Assembly: GCA_038062455.1 (NCBI GenBank)
Contig: JBBTXE010000001.1
Coordinates: 58,371-122,370 of the forward strand
DNA: 64,000 nucleotides
Origin: Patescibacteria group bacterium
Lineage (GTDB): Bacteria > Patescibacteriota > Microgenomatia > UBA12405
Direction of reading: 5' to 3'
A program made the translations under genes and the position numbers. Within the stretch, counting starts at the first letter, position 1; each line of letters opens with the position of its first letter. Under the pieces are notes generated by a model. It was not told the DNA's origin. It did no database searches and saw only the letters and a list, made by a program, of their open reading frames with translations. This document shows, piece after piece, positions 11,420 to 53,511 of the stretch.

Positions 11420-11453
11420 TAATACTTGATACTTAATACATAATACGTAATAC
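11412..11453 (+). repeat. heptanucleotide tandem array, NTRATAC units x5-6
   Basis: catacta ataatac ttgatac ttaatac ataatac gtaatac, ending 7 nt before the ftsK ATG. Confidence 0.8.
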
Positions 11454-11460
11454 TGTATAT

Positions 11461-18593: not shown

Positions 18594-19319
18594 ATGGGCT
18601 ACACCTATTTAAAAAAGTCTTCACCAAAAAGTCGCCGCCATTCCCTCAAGCCCCGAAAAATTTTTGCTGTTGTTTTTTTAAGTCTAGGGGTGTTTTTATT
18701 TCTCTCCGCCGTTTTACCCATTATTCAGTTTCAATTTGAGTATTCTCTTAAATTTAATCAAATAATCAGCCCTCTTTCTTCCCGTTTTTCCGACTCCGGC
18801 TCTGTTTTAGGCGAGAATACCGATTTTACCCAGCTGTCAAATTGGTTCATACCGGGTTCCGCCGTTGTCTCAAGTAACCCTAATTTTTTTTCACCCGACA
18901 ACAAAATTGCCTCCTATTCAATCTCTATTCCTAAACTAAAAATTAGTGAGGCTGAAGTTCTTTTTGGCAGTTCAGATCTAAAAACCAGTTTAATCCAATA
19001 CCCCCAAACCGCCCTTCCGGGTCAGCTGGGTAGTTCGGTAATTTTCGGACATTCGGTTTTACCCCAGTTTTTCAATCCCAAATCCTATCTAACTATTTTT
19101 TCCACTCTCTATAAATTAAAGTTGGGTGATGAAGTTTTTGTTGATTTTGATAACGTCAAATATCGCTATTTAGTTGAGGAAATGTATGAAGTCCAACCCA
19201 CTGATCTTTCGGTGCTGGAACAACGCTTTGATGGCCGCTATCTCACCCTTATTACCTGTTCACCTCCGGGTACTTATCTTCGCCGCCTAATTGTTAAAGC
19301 CCGGATTGTAGAAATTTAA
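18594..19319 (+). CDS. sortase family transpeptidase
   Basis: N-terminal TM anchor, catalytic His (VIFGHS), TLITCSP (TLxTC) Cys motif and a conserved Arg near the C-terminus. Confidence 0.8.
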   Translation: MGYTYLKKSSPKSRRHSLKPRKIFAVVFLSLGVFLFLSAVLPIIQFQFEYSLKFNQIISPLSSRFSDSGSVLGENTDFTQLSNWFIPGSAVVSSNPNFFSPDNKIASYSISIPKLKISEAEVLFGSSDLKTSLIQYPQTALPGQLGSSVIFGHSVLPQFFNPKSYLTIFSTLYKLKLGDEVFVDFDNVKYRYLVEEMYEVQPTDLSVLEQRFDGRYLTLITCSPPGTYLRRLIVKARIVEI

Positions 19320-19855
19320 ACCTGGTTTTTTCTACTCCAATATAATTTTTCGGTCAAACCGCCCTCTCTCTCAAACTTTTCAATCATGGCTTTGATCTGT
19401 TTTTCGAGAAGATAGGTGACAATGTGGCAGAGAGTCAATAAAAAATTCGCGTTTGCCTCGGGATTATTAGATAGTTTCGCTTTGACTTTTAAGTCACCTA
19501 AGTCACTTAAGTTTCTTAAGTTACTTAAAGAATAAGCAATTGTCTGAAATTTTCCAATAATTATCGAACCTTTCTCGTAAACTTTCATTTGATGTTGTCT
19601 TAGGAAGTCTTCATAATCGGCTTGCAGTTCTTCAAAAGACGCCTTGGCTACGCCCAATAGTTTTATTTCTCCCTTTTTCGAGGTTTGGCTTTGTCCGACT
19701 CCTTCAACAATATTTTGTTTTCCTGATCTAGCGGCCTGTTCCATCTGGTCCCTTGTTCGGGATTTATAATCAATGTTTTTTTTAACAAACTCCACCGTCA
19801 AATCATGGATAATCAAAGCATATCTGTAGGTTAAAAGATATTTATATTTTTCCAT
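19316..19855 (-). CDS. four-helix-bundle protein (23S rRNA intervening-sequence-protein-like)
   Basis: YRYALIIHDLTVEFVKK...QMEQAARSGKQNIVEG...ASFEEL pattern of the four-helix-bundle (TIGR02436-like) family. Confidence 0.65.
   Translation of the reverse strand: MEKYKYLLTYRYALIIHDLTVEFVKKNIDYKSRTRDQMEQAARSGKQNIVEGVGQSQTSKKGEIKLLGVAKASFEELQADYEDFLRQHQMKVYEKGSIIIGKFQTIAYSLSNLRNLSDLGDLKVKAKLSNNPEANANFLLTLCHIVTYLLEKQIKAMIEKFEREGGLTEKLYWSRKNQV
19490..19528. repeat. 9-bp tandem repeat TAAGTYWCY x4.3 inside the four-helix-bundle gene
   Basis: taagtcacc taagtcact taagtttct taagttact taaag, translated on the minus strand as LSNLRNLSDLGDLK. Confidence 0.8.
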
Positions 19856-21965: not shown

Positions 21966-22169
21966 ATGAAAAAACCAATCGTCTATATCCTAGCTGTTTT
22001 TGGTGCTGTTTTTGTCTATTATTTACTTCGGGCTGTTTGGGGAGGGTTTTCCTCTACTGCTGCTCCCAACAAAATGGTTCAAAAAGCCAAATGTGTTGCC
22101 GAATGTCGGAAAAATGCTTTAAGTGAAAATTGTGATCAATATTGCCTAGATCAGTCATTTAATCAATAG
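21966..22169 (+). CDS. small membrane-anchored protein with a twin Cx3C motif
   Basis: 67 aa. N-terminal TM helix, then CVAEC...CDQYC. Confidence 0.4.
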   Translation: MKKPIVYILAVFGAVFVYYLLRAVWGGFSSTAAPNKMVQKAKCVAECRKNALSENCDQYCLDQSFNQ

Positions 22170-23169
22170 GTTTTTTGTTCACCAACTCGTCTAATATTCT
22201 CCACCTTCTCTTCTTTTCACTCATCGGTACGTCATCCTCATATAGTTTGGCGGAAACTGTGCCTCGCCTCGGGCTATACTTATTTATATAAGCAATTTCA
22301 AATATGACCTTTTTACAGACCGAAACTGTTTTTTGAAAAGCGGCTTCGTCCTCTCCCGGAAACCCGACAATTATATCGGTTGACAATCTTACTCCCGGAA
22401 TTTTCTTTTTAATTCTTGACACCAATTTCAAATATTCCTCTTGTGTATATCCCCGTTTCATTCTTTTCAAAATTTCATCATCACCCGACTGAAAAGGCAG
22501 ATGAATTAAGCGGTCAATATTTTTATATTTGGCGATGGTGTCAATTAGCTCATCCGAAAAATCCCAGGGGTTACTACTAATAAATGAAACTTTTTTTAGA
22601 TTTTTTTGGGCCACTGCCTCCAGTAATTTTGGGAAACTGGGCTGGTAGGAATTTACATTTTGTCCAATCAATACTACTTCTTCAAAGCCCTTGTCTATCG
22701 CTTTATCCACCTCATTTAAAATTTCCTTCATGCTTCTGGATATTTCCCGACCGCGGGAGTAGGGGACTATACAATAGGAGCAATAATTGTCGCAACCGGA
22801 GCTTATTGGAACCAATGCCGCGCTTCTATTTCTCCTTAGTGGCTCTACTTCAAAACTAATGTTTTTTATCGGCAACATCTCATCTACACCCTCGATCTTC
22901 TTTTTAGCAATCGGCACCAAACACCCGGTCAAAATAATTTTGGGTTTTTTATTCGTAATTCGTAATTCGTAATTCGTAATTTTATTGATGAGTCCATATA
23001 CTCTGTTTTCTGCCGATTCCCGGACGACACAACTATTTATAACTACCACATCTGCCTCTTTCCAATCATCTACCAATTTATCACCCTTCTCCCAAAAAAA
23101 GGTTTTTATCCTCTCCGAATCAGCTTCATTCTGAACACAACCAAAAGTCTTTATATAAATTTTCGCCAT
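22159..23169 (-). CDS. MiaB/RimO-family radical SAM methylthiotransferase (no TRAM domain)
   Basis: IKTFGCVQNEADSE N-terminal domain; radical SAM CDNYCSYC. The start at the internal ATG (MAKIYIK) avoids overlap with the neighbouring gene. Confidence 0.8.
   Translation of the reverse strand: MAKIYIKTFGCVQNEADSERIKTFFWEKGDKLVDDWKEADVVVINSCVVRESAENRVYGLINKITNYELRITNKKPKIILTGCLVPIAKKKIEGVDEMLPIKNISFEVEPLRRNRSAALVPISSGCDNYCSYCIVPYSRGREISRSMKEILNEVDKAIDKGFEEVVLIGQNVNSYQPSFPKLLEAVAQKNLKKVSFISSNPWDFSDELIDTIAKYKNIDRLIHLPFQSGDDEILKRMKRGYTQEEYLKLVSRIKKKIPGVRLSTDIIVGFPGEDEAAFQKTVSVCKKVIFEIAYINKYSPRRGTVSAKLYEDDVPMSEKKRRWRILDELVNKKPID
22951..22981 (+). repeat. heptanucleotide tandem array (ATTCGTA) x4.4 inside a CDS
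   Basis: attcgtaattcgtaattcgtaattcgtaatt, read on the minus strand as ITNYELRITN within the methylthiotransferase. Confidence 0.9.
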
Positions 23170-32226: not shown

Positions 32227-32649
32227 ATGCCCACAATTAATCAATTAATCCGAAAAAAAAGAATCGTTCGTCGGGAAAAACTTAAATCGGTTGCCCTTCG
32301 GGGTAATTTCAACAGTCTTAAAAATACTCTTGTTCCTACCTACAATCCCCAGAAAAAAGGTGTTGTCACTGTTGTCAAAACCATGACTCCCAAAAAACCT
32401 CATTCGGCTCTCCGCAAAGTTGCCAAAATCCGTTTGAGTAATCACTCCACTATTACTGCCTACATTCCCGGTATTGGCCACAATCTGGCCGAACATGGCA
32501 TCGTTTCTATCCGGGCCGGCCGGGTCCGTGACCTTCCCGGTATCCGTTATCACGTTATTCGGGGCCGCTATGATGCTTCTCCGGTGGCCGGCCGTCTTCA
32601 GTCCCGCAGTAAATACGGTGTCAAACGTCCCGCCAAAGCCACTGCCTAA
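32227..32649 (+). CDS. rpsL: 30S ribosomal protein S12
   Basis: [10 protein letters not shown]...[10 protein letters not shown] signature. Confidence 0.97.
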
Positions 32650-32690
32650 CTTTATAAACTTTACAAACTTTTTAACTTTATAAACTCAAA
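32648..32690 (+). repeat. 8-9 bp tandem repeat AACTTTAY(A) x5 filling the rpsL-rpsG spacer
   Basis: aactttat a aactttac a aacttttt aactttat a aactcaaa. Confidence 0.7.
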
Positions 32691-39535: not shown

Positions 39536-39570
39536 ATTATACGTAATACTTGATACTTAATACTTAATAC
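39536..39570 (+). repeat. heptanucleotide tandem array, NTRATAC units x5
   Basis: attatac gtaatac ttgatac ttaatac ttaatac, ending 5 nt before the rfbD ATG. Confidence 0.8.
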
Positions 39571-39575
39571 GTCTT

Positions 39576-40454
39576 ATGAAAATCATCGCCACCGGTATCA
39601 CCGGCTTAGTTGGTTCCCGAATTTCAGAGCTTAACCCCGATCTTTCTTTTGCCGATATTTCCATTGAATCCGGCATCAGTATTCTGGATCCAGTGGCTTT
39701 AGAAAAAGTATTTACTAACAACCCCGACGCTGTCACCGTTTTACATTTAGCCGCCTTTACTGATGTTAATGGGGCTTGGTCACAAAATAAAGACCAAAAT
39801 GGTTTATGTTTCCAGTTAAATGTCACCGGTACTCAAAATATTGTCAATCTATGTAAAAAATATGGTAAATATTTAATTCACATTTCTACCGATTATGTTT
39901 TTGACGGCACCAAGGAAGGAAAATATTTAGAAACCGATACCTCCAGTCCGATCGAATGGTATGGTGAAACCAAATATTTAGCTGAAAAAGTCGTCCTCGA
40001 TTCCGGCATCAAAGCCGCCATCCTTCGTCTGGCTTTTCCTTATCGCGCCTCTTTCGAGCCCAAAAAAGATATTGTCCGAAAATTAATTGACGGTTTTAAG
40101 GTCGGCAAACTTTATCCCCAATGGACCGATCATTTTACCTCACCCACCTTTATTGATGATATCGCTGTCGCTGTCCGTAAATTTATCGACAACCAATACA
40201 CCGGTATCTACCATTGTTGCGGCTCTTCCGCCCAGTCACCCTTTGATATGTGTCAATTAATTGCCGAAGTTTTTGGGTTTGATAAATCGTTAATTGTCGC
40301 CTCAACTTTGGCTGAATTTCTTACCACCCAGGCTCCTGGTTCCCGCCCTTGGCAAAAAAATCTCTCCCTCGATAATTCTAAAATTACCGCTCTGGGTATC
40401 AAAATGAAAACTCTCCGCGAAGGCCTTGAAGAGATGAAACGTCAGCTTTCTTAG
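39576..40454 (+). CDS. rfbD: dTDP-4-dehydrorhamnose reductase
   Basis: Rossmann N-terminus GITGLVGS, HISTDYVFDG, YGETKYLAE catalytic motif. Confidence 0.85.
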   Translation: MKIIATGITGLVGSRISELNPDLSFADISIESGISILDPVALEKVFTNNPDAVTVLHLAAFTDVNGAWSQNKDQNGLCFQLNVTGTQNIVNLCKKYGKYLIHISTDYVFDGTKEGKYLETDTSSPIEWYGETKYLAEKVVLDSGIKAAILRLAFPYRASFEPKKDIVRKLIDGFKVGKLYPQWTDHFTSPTFIDDIAVAVRKFIDNQYTGIYHCCGSSAQSPFDMCQLIAEVFGFDKSLIVASTLAEFLTTQAPGSRPWQKNLSLDNSKITALGIKMKTLREGLEEMKRQLS

Positions 40455-41634
40455 CCACCTTCTCCCCCTCCCGCACCCCAAAGTTAATCCCCCTATCTTC
40501 CGGATAAATATTGGCAAAATTCACGTTGATAATTTTTCCGGCTGTTTTTTGATAATTGATAATTGAGTGTTGATAATTGGCATCAACGATATGTTGCGCA
40601 TATTTAAATTTGAAAATATTTTTCTCTGAAATTTGTTTTTTATCAAAATCGGGTAAAATCTTTTTCAAATAATCAAAAAACTCCTGCCAAATTATTTTGT
40701 CATCAACTTTAAAATATCTATGGTTTTGAGGAAGATAGGTGCCAAGATAATAGACTTGTTTTTCTTGGTACTGAGTACTTGGTACTAAGTTCGTGTGTTG
40801 AATCATCGCCACGAAAGGGGATTTGGGATCAGTAATATTATGCCAATAAAATTTACTCAAATTTTGAGTTGATGAAAACACTGCCGTTATTGCCCCCAAA
40901 TAATCAACATTTAGTAACGCTTCCGAACTGATCACTGTATCGTAATTCGTAATTCGTAATTCGTAATTCGTAATTTTTGTATTTAGCTTTATTTCTCCCC
41001 CCAACTTCTTAATTCTCTTTTTCAGTTCTTTGATTATTTGCCCAAATCCCCCCATTAAATAACCCAATTTTTCACCACCTTTTTCGCTCGAATTGGCTCG
41101 GGTGTGAATTCGGGCCCAGAGCCAGGCCATCGAAATATCCTGATATCGATTGGCAAATTTTCCTTTTAATAACGGCTCCCAAATAATTTCATAGGCTCTT
41201 TCTCCACACCACTTTTTCATCCATTGATAGGCTAAAACATTTTCAAACTTCTGCCACTTTTTTTCTTTTTCCAAATAAATCTTTACTAAACCCAAACGAA
41301 CTTTGTCAAAAATATTTAACGGCTTAAAATGCAGTAAATCTATTGCCCCATTAAATGGCCACATTTTTTTACCAAAATATATCGCCGTTGATCCGTTAAA
41401 CCATTTTAATTTTGACGATAGTCCCAAGTCTTCAATTAATTCGATAATATATTTATCGGTTTTAAAAATATGATGATAGGCTTTCTCCAAACCCTTCCCC
41501 TCAATTTTAAAAGACCCCAAAAGTCCGCCCAATTCCTTTTCTTTTTCAAAAATCGTCACCTCGTGTCCCGCTTGTAATAATCGATACCCTGCCACCAATC
41601 CGGTTATTCCGGCTCCGATAATTGCTACCTTCAT
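40399..41634 (-). CDS. FAD/NAD(P)-binding oxidoreductase (amine oxidase/protoporphyrinogen-oxidase-like)
   Basis: MKVAIIGAGITGLVAGYRL...IFEKEKELGG dinucleotide-binding motif. Its 3' end overlaps rfbD convergently by 56 nt. Confidence 0.7.
   Translation of the reverse strand: MKVAIIGAGITGLVAGYRLLQAGHEVTIFEKEKELGGLLGSFKIEGKGLEKAYHHIFKTDKYIIELIEDLGLSSKLKWFNGSTAIYFGKKMWPFNGAIDLLHFKPLNIFDKVRLGLVKIYLEKEKKWQKFENVLAYQWMKKWCGERAYEIIWEPLLKGKFANRYQDISMAWLWARIHTRANSSEKGGEKLGYLMGGFGQIIKELKKRIKKLGGEIKLNTKITNYELRITNYDTVISSEALLNVDYLGAITAVFSSTQNLSKFYWHNITDPKSPFVAMIQHTNLVPSTQYQEKQVYYLGTYLPQNHRYFKVDDKIIWQEFFDYLKKILPDFDKKQISEKNIFKFKYAQHIVDANYQHSIINYQKTAGKIINVNFANIYPEDRGINFGVREGEKVAKKADVSSLQGLRGEFSF
40938..40975 (+). 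repeat. heptanucleotide tandem array (ATTCGTA) x4 perfect, plus degenerate/partial units, inside a CDS
   Basis: tatcgta attcgta attcgta attcgta attcgta att, read on the minus strand as KITNYELRITNYD. Confidence 0.9.
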
Positions 41635-42511: not shown

Positions 42512-42546
42512 AAAATACGTAATACTTAATACGTAATACTTGATAC
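42512..42546 (+). repeat. heptanucleotide tandem array, NTRATAC units x5
   Basis: aaaatac gtaatac ttaatac gtaatac ttgatac, ending 9 nt before the fusA ATG. Confidence 0.8.
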
Positions 42547-42555
42547 TATTTTTAT

Positions 42556-46699: not shown

Positions 46700-46798
46700 G
46701 AATAATTTAAAAAATAAATTAATAATTAATAATTTAAAAAAATAAGTTCGATTTCTTTAGACATTAGAAATTAGGATTTAGAAATTTTTTGTATTAGT

Positions 46799-49327: not shown

Positions 49328-49338
49328 TCTATCAATTA

Positions 49339-49373
49339 ATTCGTAATTCGTAATTCGTAATTGATAATTAATT
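49339..49373 (+). repeat. heptanucleotide tandem array: ATTCGTA x3, ATTGATA, ATTAATT
   Basis: Ends 4 nt before the rpsS ATG. Shares a 23-nt stretch (attcgtaattcgtaattgataatta) with the 53477 array. Confidence 0.85.
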
Positions 49374-53442: not shown

Positions 53443-53476
53443 TAAATAGTTTATTTTTTAAAAAATAAAAAATTAA

Positions 53477-53511
53477 ATTCGTAATTCGTAATTGATAATT
53501 AATAATTAATA
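53477..53511 (+). repeat. heptanucleotide tandem array: ATTCGTA x2, ATTGATA, ATTAATA x2
   Basis: Ends 3 nt before the rplF ATG. Confidence 0.85.

Follow-up and report, generated by a model that had tools for sequence, protein, structure and literature searches.

A perfect tandem array of a 7-nucleotide (nt) unit, ATTCGTA, lies inside a minus-strand gene for a flavin adenine dinucleotide (FAD)-dependent oxidoreductase in a 64,000-nt stretch of contig JBBTXE010000001.1 (positions 58,371 to 122,370; assembly GCA_038062455.1), which belongs to a Patescibacteria group bacterium and is called the window hereafter. How a non-triplet repeat came to be read in frame within a conserved enzyme, and whether it is the DNA or the peptide that accounts for its presence, is the question raised by this locus. 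The initial annotation regarded the array as a second, independent copy of a heptamer repeat shared by two unrelated enzymes, and ascribed it to insertion or expansion of a DNA element rather than to protein-level convergence. Based on the results of this study, the array is one of the loci of a heptamer direct-repeat family that extends across the lineage of this Microgenomates/Shapirobacteria-like Patescibacteria genome from groundwater. It is best explained, with a probability of roughly 70%, as a heptamer microsatellite born by slippage and filtered by stop codons, reading frame and loop tolerance. The coding array itself is probably functionless, that is, a tolerated, frame-locked microsatellite. 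The two host genes and their arrays are:

40399..41634, minus strand: host gene of 411 amino acids (aa), protoporphyrinogen oxidase/phytoene desaturase (PPO/PDS)-like FAD-dependent oxidoreductase (NF005560/PRK07233 family), assigned from profiles, homologues and an AlphaFold2 (AF2) model
40940..40975, minus strand: site 1 of the oxidoreductase, perfect (ATTCGTA)x5.1 on the plus strand, equal to (TACGAAT)n on the sense strand, in frame in 40399..41634 (Tandem Repeats Finder, TRF)
40549..40579, minus strand: site 2 of the same open reading frame (ORF), degenerate heptamer array, TTGATAA-type on the plus and CAATTAT-type on the sense strand; N353-Q362, NYQHSIINYQ
22159..23169, minus strand: MiaB-like radical S-adenosylmethionine (SAM) methylthiotransferase, likely true start M26 (336 aa, as in P0361)
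22951..22981, minus strand: (ATTCGTA)x4.4, in frame in the MiaB gene, aa 88-98, KITNYELRITN

The array at 40940-40975 consists of head-to-tail 7-nt copies in a tract longer than expected by chance, and was recovered by TRF with period 7, 5.1 copies, 100% matches and a score of 72 (plus strand, TCGTAATTCGTAATTCGTAATTCGTAATTCGTAATT). The 14-mer ATTCGTAATTCGTA, with at most one mismatch allowed, has nine matches in the window, all on the plus strand, against 0.04 expected, and nine matches were reached in 0 of 100 shuffles. The array proper encodes ITNYELRITNYD. With K220, which comes from a degenerate flanking unit, the site 1 peptide is KITNYELRITNYD (K220-D232, from 40939-40977 on the minus strand), and its sense strand reads AAA ATT ACG AAT TAC GAA TTA CGA ATT ACG AAT TAC GAT. 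TRF and translation thus confirmed an in-frame array in the minus-strand oxidoreductase coding sequence, and the interval 40938-40975 assigned to it earlier was correct within 2-3 nt. The array is not an assembly artefact, because an independent contig from Hainich groundwater (L001), 99.98% identical and gapless over the array, has the same array. The second coding array was likewise found as described, in MiaB, an unrelated enzyme, and both coding arrays are preceded by the shared AAA ATT ACG (K-I-T) lead-in.

The host ORF is a genuine gene, as judged from profile matches, homologues and predicted fold. It matched NCBIfam NF005560 at 1.3e-122 and the Pfam domains Amino_oxidase and NAD_binding_8; more than 2000 homologues, normally 390-415 aa long, were found, with Candidatus Shapirobacteria as the named relatives; and the AF2 model (pLDDT 87) has the protoporphyrinogen-oxidase/phytoene-desaturase fold with a TM of 0.75-0.78. 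Both the oxidoreductase and MiaB are transcribed against the direction of their neighbouring genes. The oxidoreductase ORF overlaps the convergent rmlD by 56 nt (40399-40454). Its last ~15 residues (…SSLQGLRGEFSF) are missing from the orthologues and are modelled with pLDDT <50, and the extension was therefore probably produced by a recent shift of the stop codon.

The orientation of the coding arrays follows from the unit itself. In the forward orientation, (TAATTCG)n, a TAA stop is present in every frame, whereas the complement, (CGAATTA)n, is stop-free and always encodes cyclic YELRITN. Since 7 and 3 are coprime, a heptamer array repeats each 21 nt and its three frames give one and the same cyclic heptapeptide. 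The frame common to the oxidoreductase and MiaB arrays is therefore automatic and uninformative, as all three frames of (TACGAAT)n read alike. Copies inside ORFs must be in the reverse orientation, because no frame of the forward strand is free of stops; all three in-ORF arrays of the window (3/3) were reverse. TAATACT-type units, with stops on both strands, can never be coding. The number of units is also restricted by the frame: when the gain or loss of one or two units was simulated, a stop appeared within 10-25 codons in both the oxidoreductase and MiaB, while a change of three units preserved the frame in both.

A comparison of the flanks had been proposed as a means to clarify the origin of the two coding arrays. 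When four loci, two coding and two non-coding, were aligned together with their flanks, no similarity was found beyond the array and one degenerate unit; what the two coding arrays share outside the perfect tract is only AAAAATT (against ACGAATT), i.e., a degenerate eighth unit that corresponds to the K-I-T context. Neither inverted termini nor target-site duplications were present at the four aligned loci. The unrelated flanks, together with the lack of termini and duplications, point to a microsatellite and not to a discrete mobile insert. The earlier preference for DNA insertion or expansion over convergence of the proteins can thus be accepted in part. Identity at the DNA level stands: the unit is nucleotide-perfect, the same unit is found in the leaders at 49337 and 53476, and orthologues of 75-80% identity have unrelated sequence at site 1. 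A discrete inserted element does not, given the unrelated flanks and a MiaB array that brings no net insert and has kept four units among orthologues of 77-99% identity. Freedom from protein constraint also has to be given up, as the arrays keep aromatic residues of the family (NYD at site 1, NYELRITNY at site 2). Folding gave no sign of a structured RNA either: neither strand of the array folds better than shuffled sequences (z-scores +1.1 and -0.8), and a search of the window against Rfam returned no match.

The place of site 1 in the protein was clarified by aligning 31 orthologues. The array occupies a hypervariable linker that runs from a GGxIxLN strand to a [FY]-D-K-[VI]-IS motif and which we take, from what is known of the PPO/PDS fold, to lie in the beta-meander of the FAD domain. 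In the nearest orthologues (75-80% identity) no array is present there and sequences such as KMSGEF, RISGKF or DEKELLKNF are found instead; at the DNA level, ~19 nt of an 80%-identity orthologue are replaced by the ~37-nt array. The segment is 27-30 aa long in family members of no more than 45% identity, and across 70 orthologues it varies from 12 to 30 aa with unrelated sequences. The array therefore does not belong to a conserved domain part or motif of this oxidoreductase family; had it done so, this would have spoken against a DNA-level origin. In the model, site 1 forms a loop and a short helix with pLDDT 71 at aa 221-230, compared with 95-97 and 87 in the flanking blocks; pLDDT and the pattern of indels served here as a stand-in for solvent exposure of the array segments. 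The final codons of the array, AAT TAC GAT (NYD), nevertheless provide the conserved aromatic-Asp pair, [FY]-D, of the family.

Site 2 shows the same combination of variable heptamers and retained residues. It carries (ACGAATT)3-4, encoding NYQLRITNYEL or NYELRITNYEF, in three orthologues (L004, L005 and L006), (AAGTACA)4 in L002, and CAATTAT-type units encoding NYQSSIINFQS in further orthologues. More distant orthologues have heptamer arrays at either site, and cyclic YELRITN of at least six residues was found at site 1 or site 2 in 17 of the 120 orthologues listed. The site 2 arrays retain the nearly invariant Tyr354 and another Tyr seven residues on, and NYELRITNY is similar to DYEKKIPDY, a motif found in distant homologues. 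On this sequence evidence, the protein acts as a filter on the heptamers admitted to site 2. In another oxidoreductase ORF (L143, 2698-2760) a heptamer array contains a GC-rich hairpin, CCGCCAGAGGCGGGCAGGCG, read as NYQL-PARGGQAS-YELN, and a comparable interruption, ELRITN-PPAGRAG-YEL, is present in protein P0090. The hairpin recalls the small dispersed repeats that are said, since Elhai's work of 2008, to insert into heptamer arrays in Nostoc; arrays of Nostoc were often found here to be interrupted by ~30-nt GC-rich inserts. A second in-frame dispersed element, AATCCCTCTAAATCTCCCTTTGACAAGGGAGACTT, with the 8-bp inverted repeat TCTCCCTT/AAGGGAGA and encoding NPSKSPFDKGD, was also observed in relatives. 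In different species it is hosted by site 1 or site 2 of the oxidoreductase, by a variable MiaB site or by other ORFs. Its loci are:

L006, 2553-2603: NPSKSPFDKGD element
L139, 10652-10702: NPSKSPFDKGD element
L150, 12051-12101: NPSKSPFDKGD element
L155, 12986-13036: NPSKSPFDKGD element
L160, 11018-11068: NPSKSPFDKGD element
L207, 830-880: NPSKSPFDKGD element

In the AF2 model of MiaB, helix 77-96 ends C-terminally in the array, which also forms the next turn. Compared with the Bacteroides MiaB (7MJV), the array takes the place of the last part of the helix that follows the second cluster cysteine, with a net gain of only ~3 residues. Exactly four units were present in every orthologue whose DNA was read (99%, 86% and 77% identity), although the sequences of the units differ:

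MiaB of the window: ACGAATT x4
MiaB of L130 (86%-identity relative): ACGAATT, ACAAATT, ACGAATT, ACGAATA
MiaB of L131: ACTAATT, ACAAATT, ACTAATT, ACTAATG

The remaining MiaB orthologues have unrelated linkers at this position. The fixed number of units with changing sequence indicates concerted evolution under constraints of length and frame. With four units retained among orthologues of 77-99% identity, the array is old rather than recent, and, as it replaces the end of a helix, it is no net insert. A second variable site in the MiaB of L131 (1010-1048) contains (ATCAGTT)n, the reverse complement of the TAACTGA repeat, encoding QLSVNSYELRN. The C-terminal TRAM domain is absent from the MiaB-like enzyme of the window and from all 120 orthologues listed (318-379 aa), which end just past the radical-SAM core, and its absence is a trait of the clade. 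A pseudogene or frameshift, which the missing domain brought to mind, was ruled out by the lengths and the common end point of these orthologues.

An analysis of copy number at the population level had also been proposed, for which near-identical assemblies in ENA served as the sample. Copy numbers were identical to those of the window in L001 (99.98%), L128 and L129 (99.4%) and the assembly of P0362, and no polymorphism was thus found among them. No truncated variants are present in the 90% protein cluster of the oxidoreductase, which consists of one member. A search for the exact flanks joined by 1-9 units gave 0 matches in JGI metagenome contigs, where the organism is absent.

Period 7 is over-represented specifically in this genome. 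Over the window, a sliding test of exact periodicity gave 7-10 arrays for period 7 and 0-3 for any other period from 3 to 13, the signal at period 14 merely mirroring that at 7. In 450 kb around the orthologous genes of related metagenomic Patescibacteria, 13 arrays had period 7 and no other period had more than one. The ATTCGTA unit occurs at four loci of the window, two coding (oxidoreductase and MiaB) and two non-coding, and AATTACG is the commonest unit in the relatives (10 of ~31 distinct arrays). Six non-coding arrays stand in gene leaders:

49337..49369, plus strand: forward array TAATTCG x3.7 passing into TAATTGA/TAATTAA, ends 8 nt before the rpsS ATG (49378)
53476..53511, plus strand: forward array AATTCGT x2.6, then TAATTGA/TAATTAA, ends 3 nt before the rplF ATG (53515)
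11420..11454, plus strand: TAATACT-type array filling the intergenic gap, ends 6 nt before the ftsK ATG (11461)
39539..39570, plus strand: TAATACT-type array, ends 5 nt before the rmlD ATG (39576)
42514..42547, plus strand: TAATACG/TAATACT array, ends 8 nt before the fusA ATG (42556)
46757..46786, plus strand: TTAGAAA-type array, ends 12 nt before the rpsJ ATG (46799)

All six end 3-12 nt upstream of an ATG, in sense orientation and without a Shine-Dalgarno (SD) sequence. In the relatives, eight intergenic arrays abutting start codons were forward, one was reverse and two were ambiguous. The reverse one, in the 86%-identity relative (L130, 18361-18413), stands 5 nt before an ATG in the stop-free orientation, with AATTACT/ATTTACT on the sense strand. 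The genome is poor in SD sequences, which precede 7 of the 79 genes of the window against a background of 6%. In 26 of the 79, against 9%, a -10-like TAnnnT hexamer is found 5-10 nt upstream of the start. Leaderless mRNAs are probably common in this genome, since SD sequences are at background level and TAnnnT is enriched before starts. Coding DNA of the window amounts to 53.7 kb on the plus strand and 8.6 kb on the minus strand. On the plus strand, GC skew is negative throughout (-0.07 to -0.23), though ~86% of the coding DNA, with rpoBC and the operons for ribosomal proteins, lies on this strand; the skew is therefore uninformative as a marker of the leading strand. Two tandem arrays of 9 nt were also observed, AACTTTATA x4.4 at 32648-32686, which ends 6 nt before the rpsG ATG (32693), and TTAAGTTAC x4.4 at 19489-19528, in frame in the minus-strand ORF 19316..19855 and encoding SNLRNLSDLGDL.

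The unit is not limited to this lineage. (ATTCGTA)3 is present in at least 120 species-representative genomes, against a chance expectation of ~0.3 for a 21-mer in 596 Gb (our own estimate); those listed include many Nostocales, Bacteroidota, Acidobacteriota, Chloroflexota, Planctomycetota and one Shapirobacteria. Among the arrays listed from other phyla most are intergenic, 6 of 131 being inside ORFs, all six reverse. Near start codons 19 of the listed TAATTCG arrays are forward and 13 reverse, with 93 elsewhere in intergenic DNA, so that the association with start codons is not universal. Long inverted repeats, composed of one TAATTCG array and a neighbouring same-strand ACGAATT array, occur in several unrelated phyla (L016, L018, L042, L053, L071, L082, L090, L100 and L102). 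A search for (YELRITN)6 in 5.8 billion proteins returned only 'hypothetical proteins' of 30-75 aa, mostly cyanobacterial, and is uninformative on real host proteins. At least 130 such public entries (P0121-P0240 among them), some of them mislabelled 'alpha/beta hydrolase', look like translated ATTCGTA arrays; by sequence, they are likely to be spurious ORFs over long intergenic arrays, i.e., annotation artefacts.

The process that we consider best able to account for these observations would begin with replication slippage, which could make and homogenise 7-nt tandem copies from A/T-rich, AATTAY-like seeds, frequent as these would be in the Asn-Tyr, Lys-Ile and Asn-Phe codons of a low-GC genome. 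The stop-bearing TAATTCG orientation confines arrays to intergenic DNA, where they abut start codons, and only the stop-free reverse orientation lets them persist inside ORFs. There, changes of one or two units truncate the protein within 10-25 codons, and only changes of three units are compatible with the frame. Within proteins the arrays are found only in linkers that vary in length and are modelled with low confidence, the variability being observed and the tolerance presumed, with the constrained aromatic and Asp residues retained.

Several results are not in concordance with this explanation. Slippage itself was not observed, and copy number was the same in all near-identical assemblies available. 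A neutral microsatellite should decay, yet the MiaB site and its number of units persist to 77% protein identity and the site 2 arrays of the oxidoreductase to 59%. In the relatives, ~16 in-ORF arrays lie in ~56 kb of oxidoreductase genes and several in MiaB, compared with at most two weak ones in ~380 kb of other coding DNA, and the two hosts are usually the sole genes on their strand within 10 kb on each side. This concentration in two genes, both alone on the opposite strand, is not predicted if any tolerant loop can host an array. Slippage alone also leaves the identical unit in many unrelated phyla unexplained. The concentration by strand and gene cannot be separated from the case of two proteins whose loops are, by coincidence, tolerant and contain AATTAY seeds, because only two gene families are involved and synteny is conserved.

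Two candidate products of the arrays were looked for and rejected. As to an antisense promoter, a consensus scan gave no promoter-like site at the 40940 array; the only one at the arrays is TTGATA-17-GATAAT at site 2 (40549-40577), which is made by the repeat itself, and the region has 16 such sites against 9.8 +/- 3.6 expected. As to plus-strand ORFs started by the arrays, only an 11-codon frame after 40975 and an unconserved ORF of 49 aa after 22981 are present.

The strand distribution could be taken to mean that the arrays are strand-specific cis-elements, acting on the dominant plus strand as DNA or RNA sites for a factor that also recognises the leader arrays, although we consider this unlikely. 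The TAA-bearing or TAAT-first strand is the plus strand in 10 of the 10 period-7 arrays of the window, but the forward orientation is forbidden in ORFs in any case and three of the ten orientations are therefore forced. The copies in the oxidoreductase and MiaB would then be 'forward' elements of the dominant strand, incidentally readable by the opposite-strand gene, which might for example punctuate antisense or read-through transcription; this also is doubtful. It would accord with the three in-ORF arrays lying in two of the few minus-strand genes and none in plus-strand genes, with the solitary position of the same two genes in the relatives, where almost no other ORF has an array, with the conservation of the sites across orthologues of 59-86% identity, and with the lack of a terminator-like site between rmlD and the convergent oxidoreductase gene. 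However, with only two independent genes and conserved synteny, orientation and gene identity are confounded; the 40940 array is followed by no plus-strand start codon or ORF and shows no promoter-like site in a consensus scan; and the leader array of L130 is reversed. We hold it improbable, too, that one sequence-specific factor reads the arrays, as elements of the strand that dominates transcription or replication of the chromosome, in place of SD-type signals in an SD-poor, largely leaderless genome, and that the oxidoreductase and MiaB copies are kept by selection on DNA or RNA. If this were true, such selection would explain why sites and numbers of units are still kept at 59-77% protein identity, and why the arrays are almost confined to lone genes of the opposite strand, which would thereby come under antisense or collision control.

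A contingency switch, with slippage by one or two units as the on-off toggle of the oxidoreductase and MiaB, is quite improbable. Seven is not divisible by three, the perfect tracts have 4-5 units, a change of one or two units brings stops as simulated above, and heptamer tracts are reported to drive phase variation in Haemophilus hmw1A (PMC8262952, PMC12721329). On the other hand, no variation was seen among the near-identical assemblies or in the four units of MiaB in the orthologues examined, the single-member cluster offers no truncated variant, the tracts are short, and the hosts are housekeeping-type enzymes and not surface structures. Selection on the peptide, with (YELRITN)n as a functional structural module (an amphipathic hairpin or helix, for example) that each enzyme recruited on its own, has very little in its favour in our judgement. 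The peptide is seen both in MiaB and at two sites of the oxidoreductase family, with conserved aromatic positions kept and the likeness to DYEKKIPDY at site 2. But the codons are identical between periods and genes, with zero synonymous variation; the same DNA is present in non-coding leaders and is mostly intergenic in other phyla; in orthologues the sites are occupied by unrelated sequences or by heptamers encoding different peptides; and the array segments are modelled at low confidence. The insertion of a small mobile element carrying the heptamers, similar to miniature inverted-repeat transposable elements (MITE), Rickettsia palindromic elements (RPE) or small dispersed repeats (SDR), is the most improbable. 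In-frame dispersed elements do exist in the relatives, as in the palindromic NPSKSPFDKGD element and the GC-rich hairpins inside arrays, and the unit is identical in distant phyla; however, nothing is shared past the array and one degenerate unit, there are no inverted termini or target duplications, and the lengths and units of the arrays vary continuously between loci and species.

Repeats that resemble those of the window in one respect or another are known from other bacteria. RPE are palindromic mobile elements of 100-150 bp with defined ends, found in frame in conserved proteins. As with RPE, a DNA repeat is tolerated here in frame at permissive positions of conserved proteins, but the array of the window is a 36-nt tandem microsatellite without termini. 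The STRR heptamers of cyanobacteria were reportedly described by Mazel and colleagues in 1990, a study cited in PMC4692102, and the STRR1, STRR2 and STRR3 units of heterocystous cyanobacteria are said to be CCCCAGT, TTGGTCA and CAACAGT. To our knowledge, STRR serve as intergenic targets for fingerprinting, and none is known to form a conserved protein segment in frame. The array studied here is not one of them, since its unit is ATTCGTA and its organism belongs to Patescibacteria. Heptamer repeats of GGGGA(T/C)T and GGGAATC were described by Rehm 2015 (PMC4692102). Like these and STRR, the arrays of the window are dispersed tandem heptamers, and identical (ATTCGTA)3 is found in many Nostocales; unlike them, they have a different unit and host, and the window repeat is without G-quadruplex potential. 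Among long simple sequence repeats (SSRs) with units of 5-11 nt, heptamers are the most abundant in prokaryotes, for which slippage related to the polymerase was proposed (Mrazek, Guo and Shah 2007, summarised by PMC4679880 and PMC4692102). In that survey, period 7 is specifically over-represented and mostly intergenic, as in the present genome, whereas coding SSRs usually have units that are a multiple of three, in contrast to the 7-nt unit in frame here, and Patescibacteria are not covered. The 7-bp promoter repeats of hmw1A are also a heptamer tract, in which a change of copy number alters expression (PMC8262952, PMC12721329). In contrast to phase-variable contingency loci, the arrays of the window are short, lie in housekeeping genes, showed no polymorphism and have a number of units conserved between species.

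The closest likeness is to the TAACTGA direct repeats, known from marine Beggiatoaceae as well as from some Cyanobacteria and Bacteroidetes (MacGregor 2015, Front Microbiol; PMC4679880). Their forward copies have stops in all frames and stand a few nt upstream of start codons without a ribosome-binding site (RBS), including that of fusA and those within ribosomal-protein operons, and their reverse copies, in 11 ORFs, encode LSVISYQ (PMC4679880). In both systems the units are tandem, 7 nt long and TAA-initial and give a cyclic 7-aa peptide when reversed (LSVISYQ there, YELRITN here), most arrays stand just before RBS-less starts, including that of fusA and starts inside ribosomal-protein operons, a minority is reverse within ORFs, and no RNA structure is predicted (PMC4679880). 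The reverse TAACTGA-type (ATCAGTT)n is itself found in the MiaB of L131. The differences are the units, which are TAATTCG, TAATACT and TTAGAAA in the window, and the host, a Patescibacteria genome. In-ORF copies are also placed differently, lying in mid-protein in conserved enzymes and being kept in orthologues here, while those of TAACTGA are mostly at protein ends or in hypothetical ORFs (PMC4679880). No paper linking heptamer direct repeats to Patescibacteria was found in our literature search. What is new here is the host phylum, the TAATTCG unit, and the frame-locked, orthologously conserved arrays in the middle of conserved enzymes.

Heptamer direct repeats, as known from Beggiatoaceae, Cyanobacteria, Bacteroidetes and Xanthomonas, thus extend to the ultra-small genomes of Patescibacteria, with the same positional grammar of forward copies by RBS-less starts and reverse copies inside ORFs. 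The orthologue series forms a compact natural data set on a non-triplet microsatellite that is frame-locked in essential-type enzymes and evolves in concert. It is necessary for annotators and builders of protein families to expect low-complexity segments similar to YELRITN, as well as short spurious ORFs, that derive from DNA repeats. If the arrays were read in a strand-specific manner, this would imply a hitherto unknown signal for the control of translation or transcription in SD-poor bacteria.

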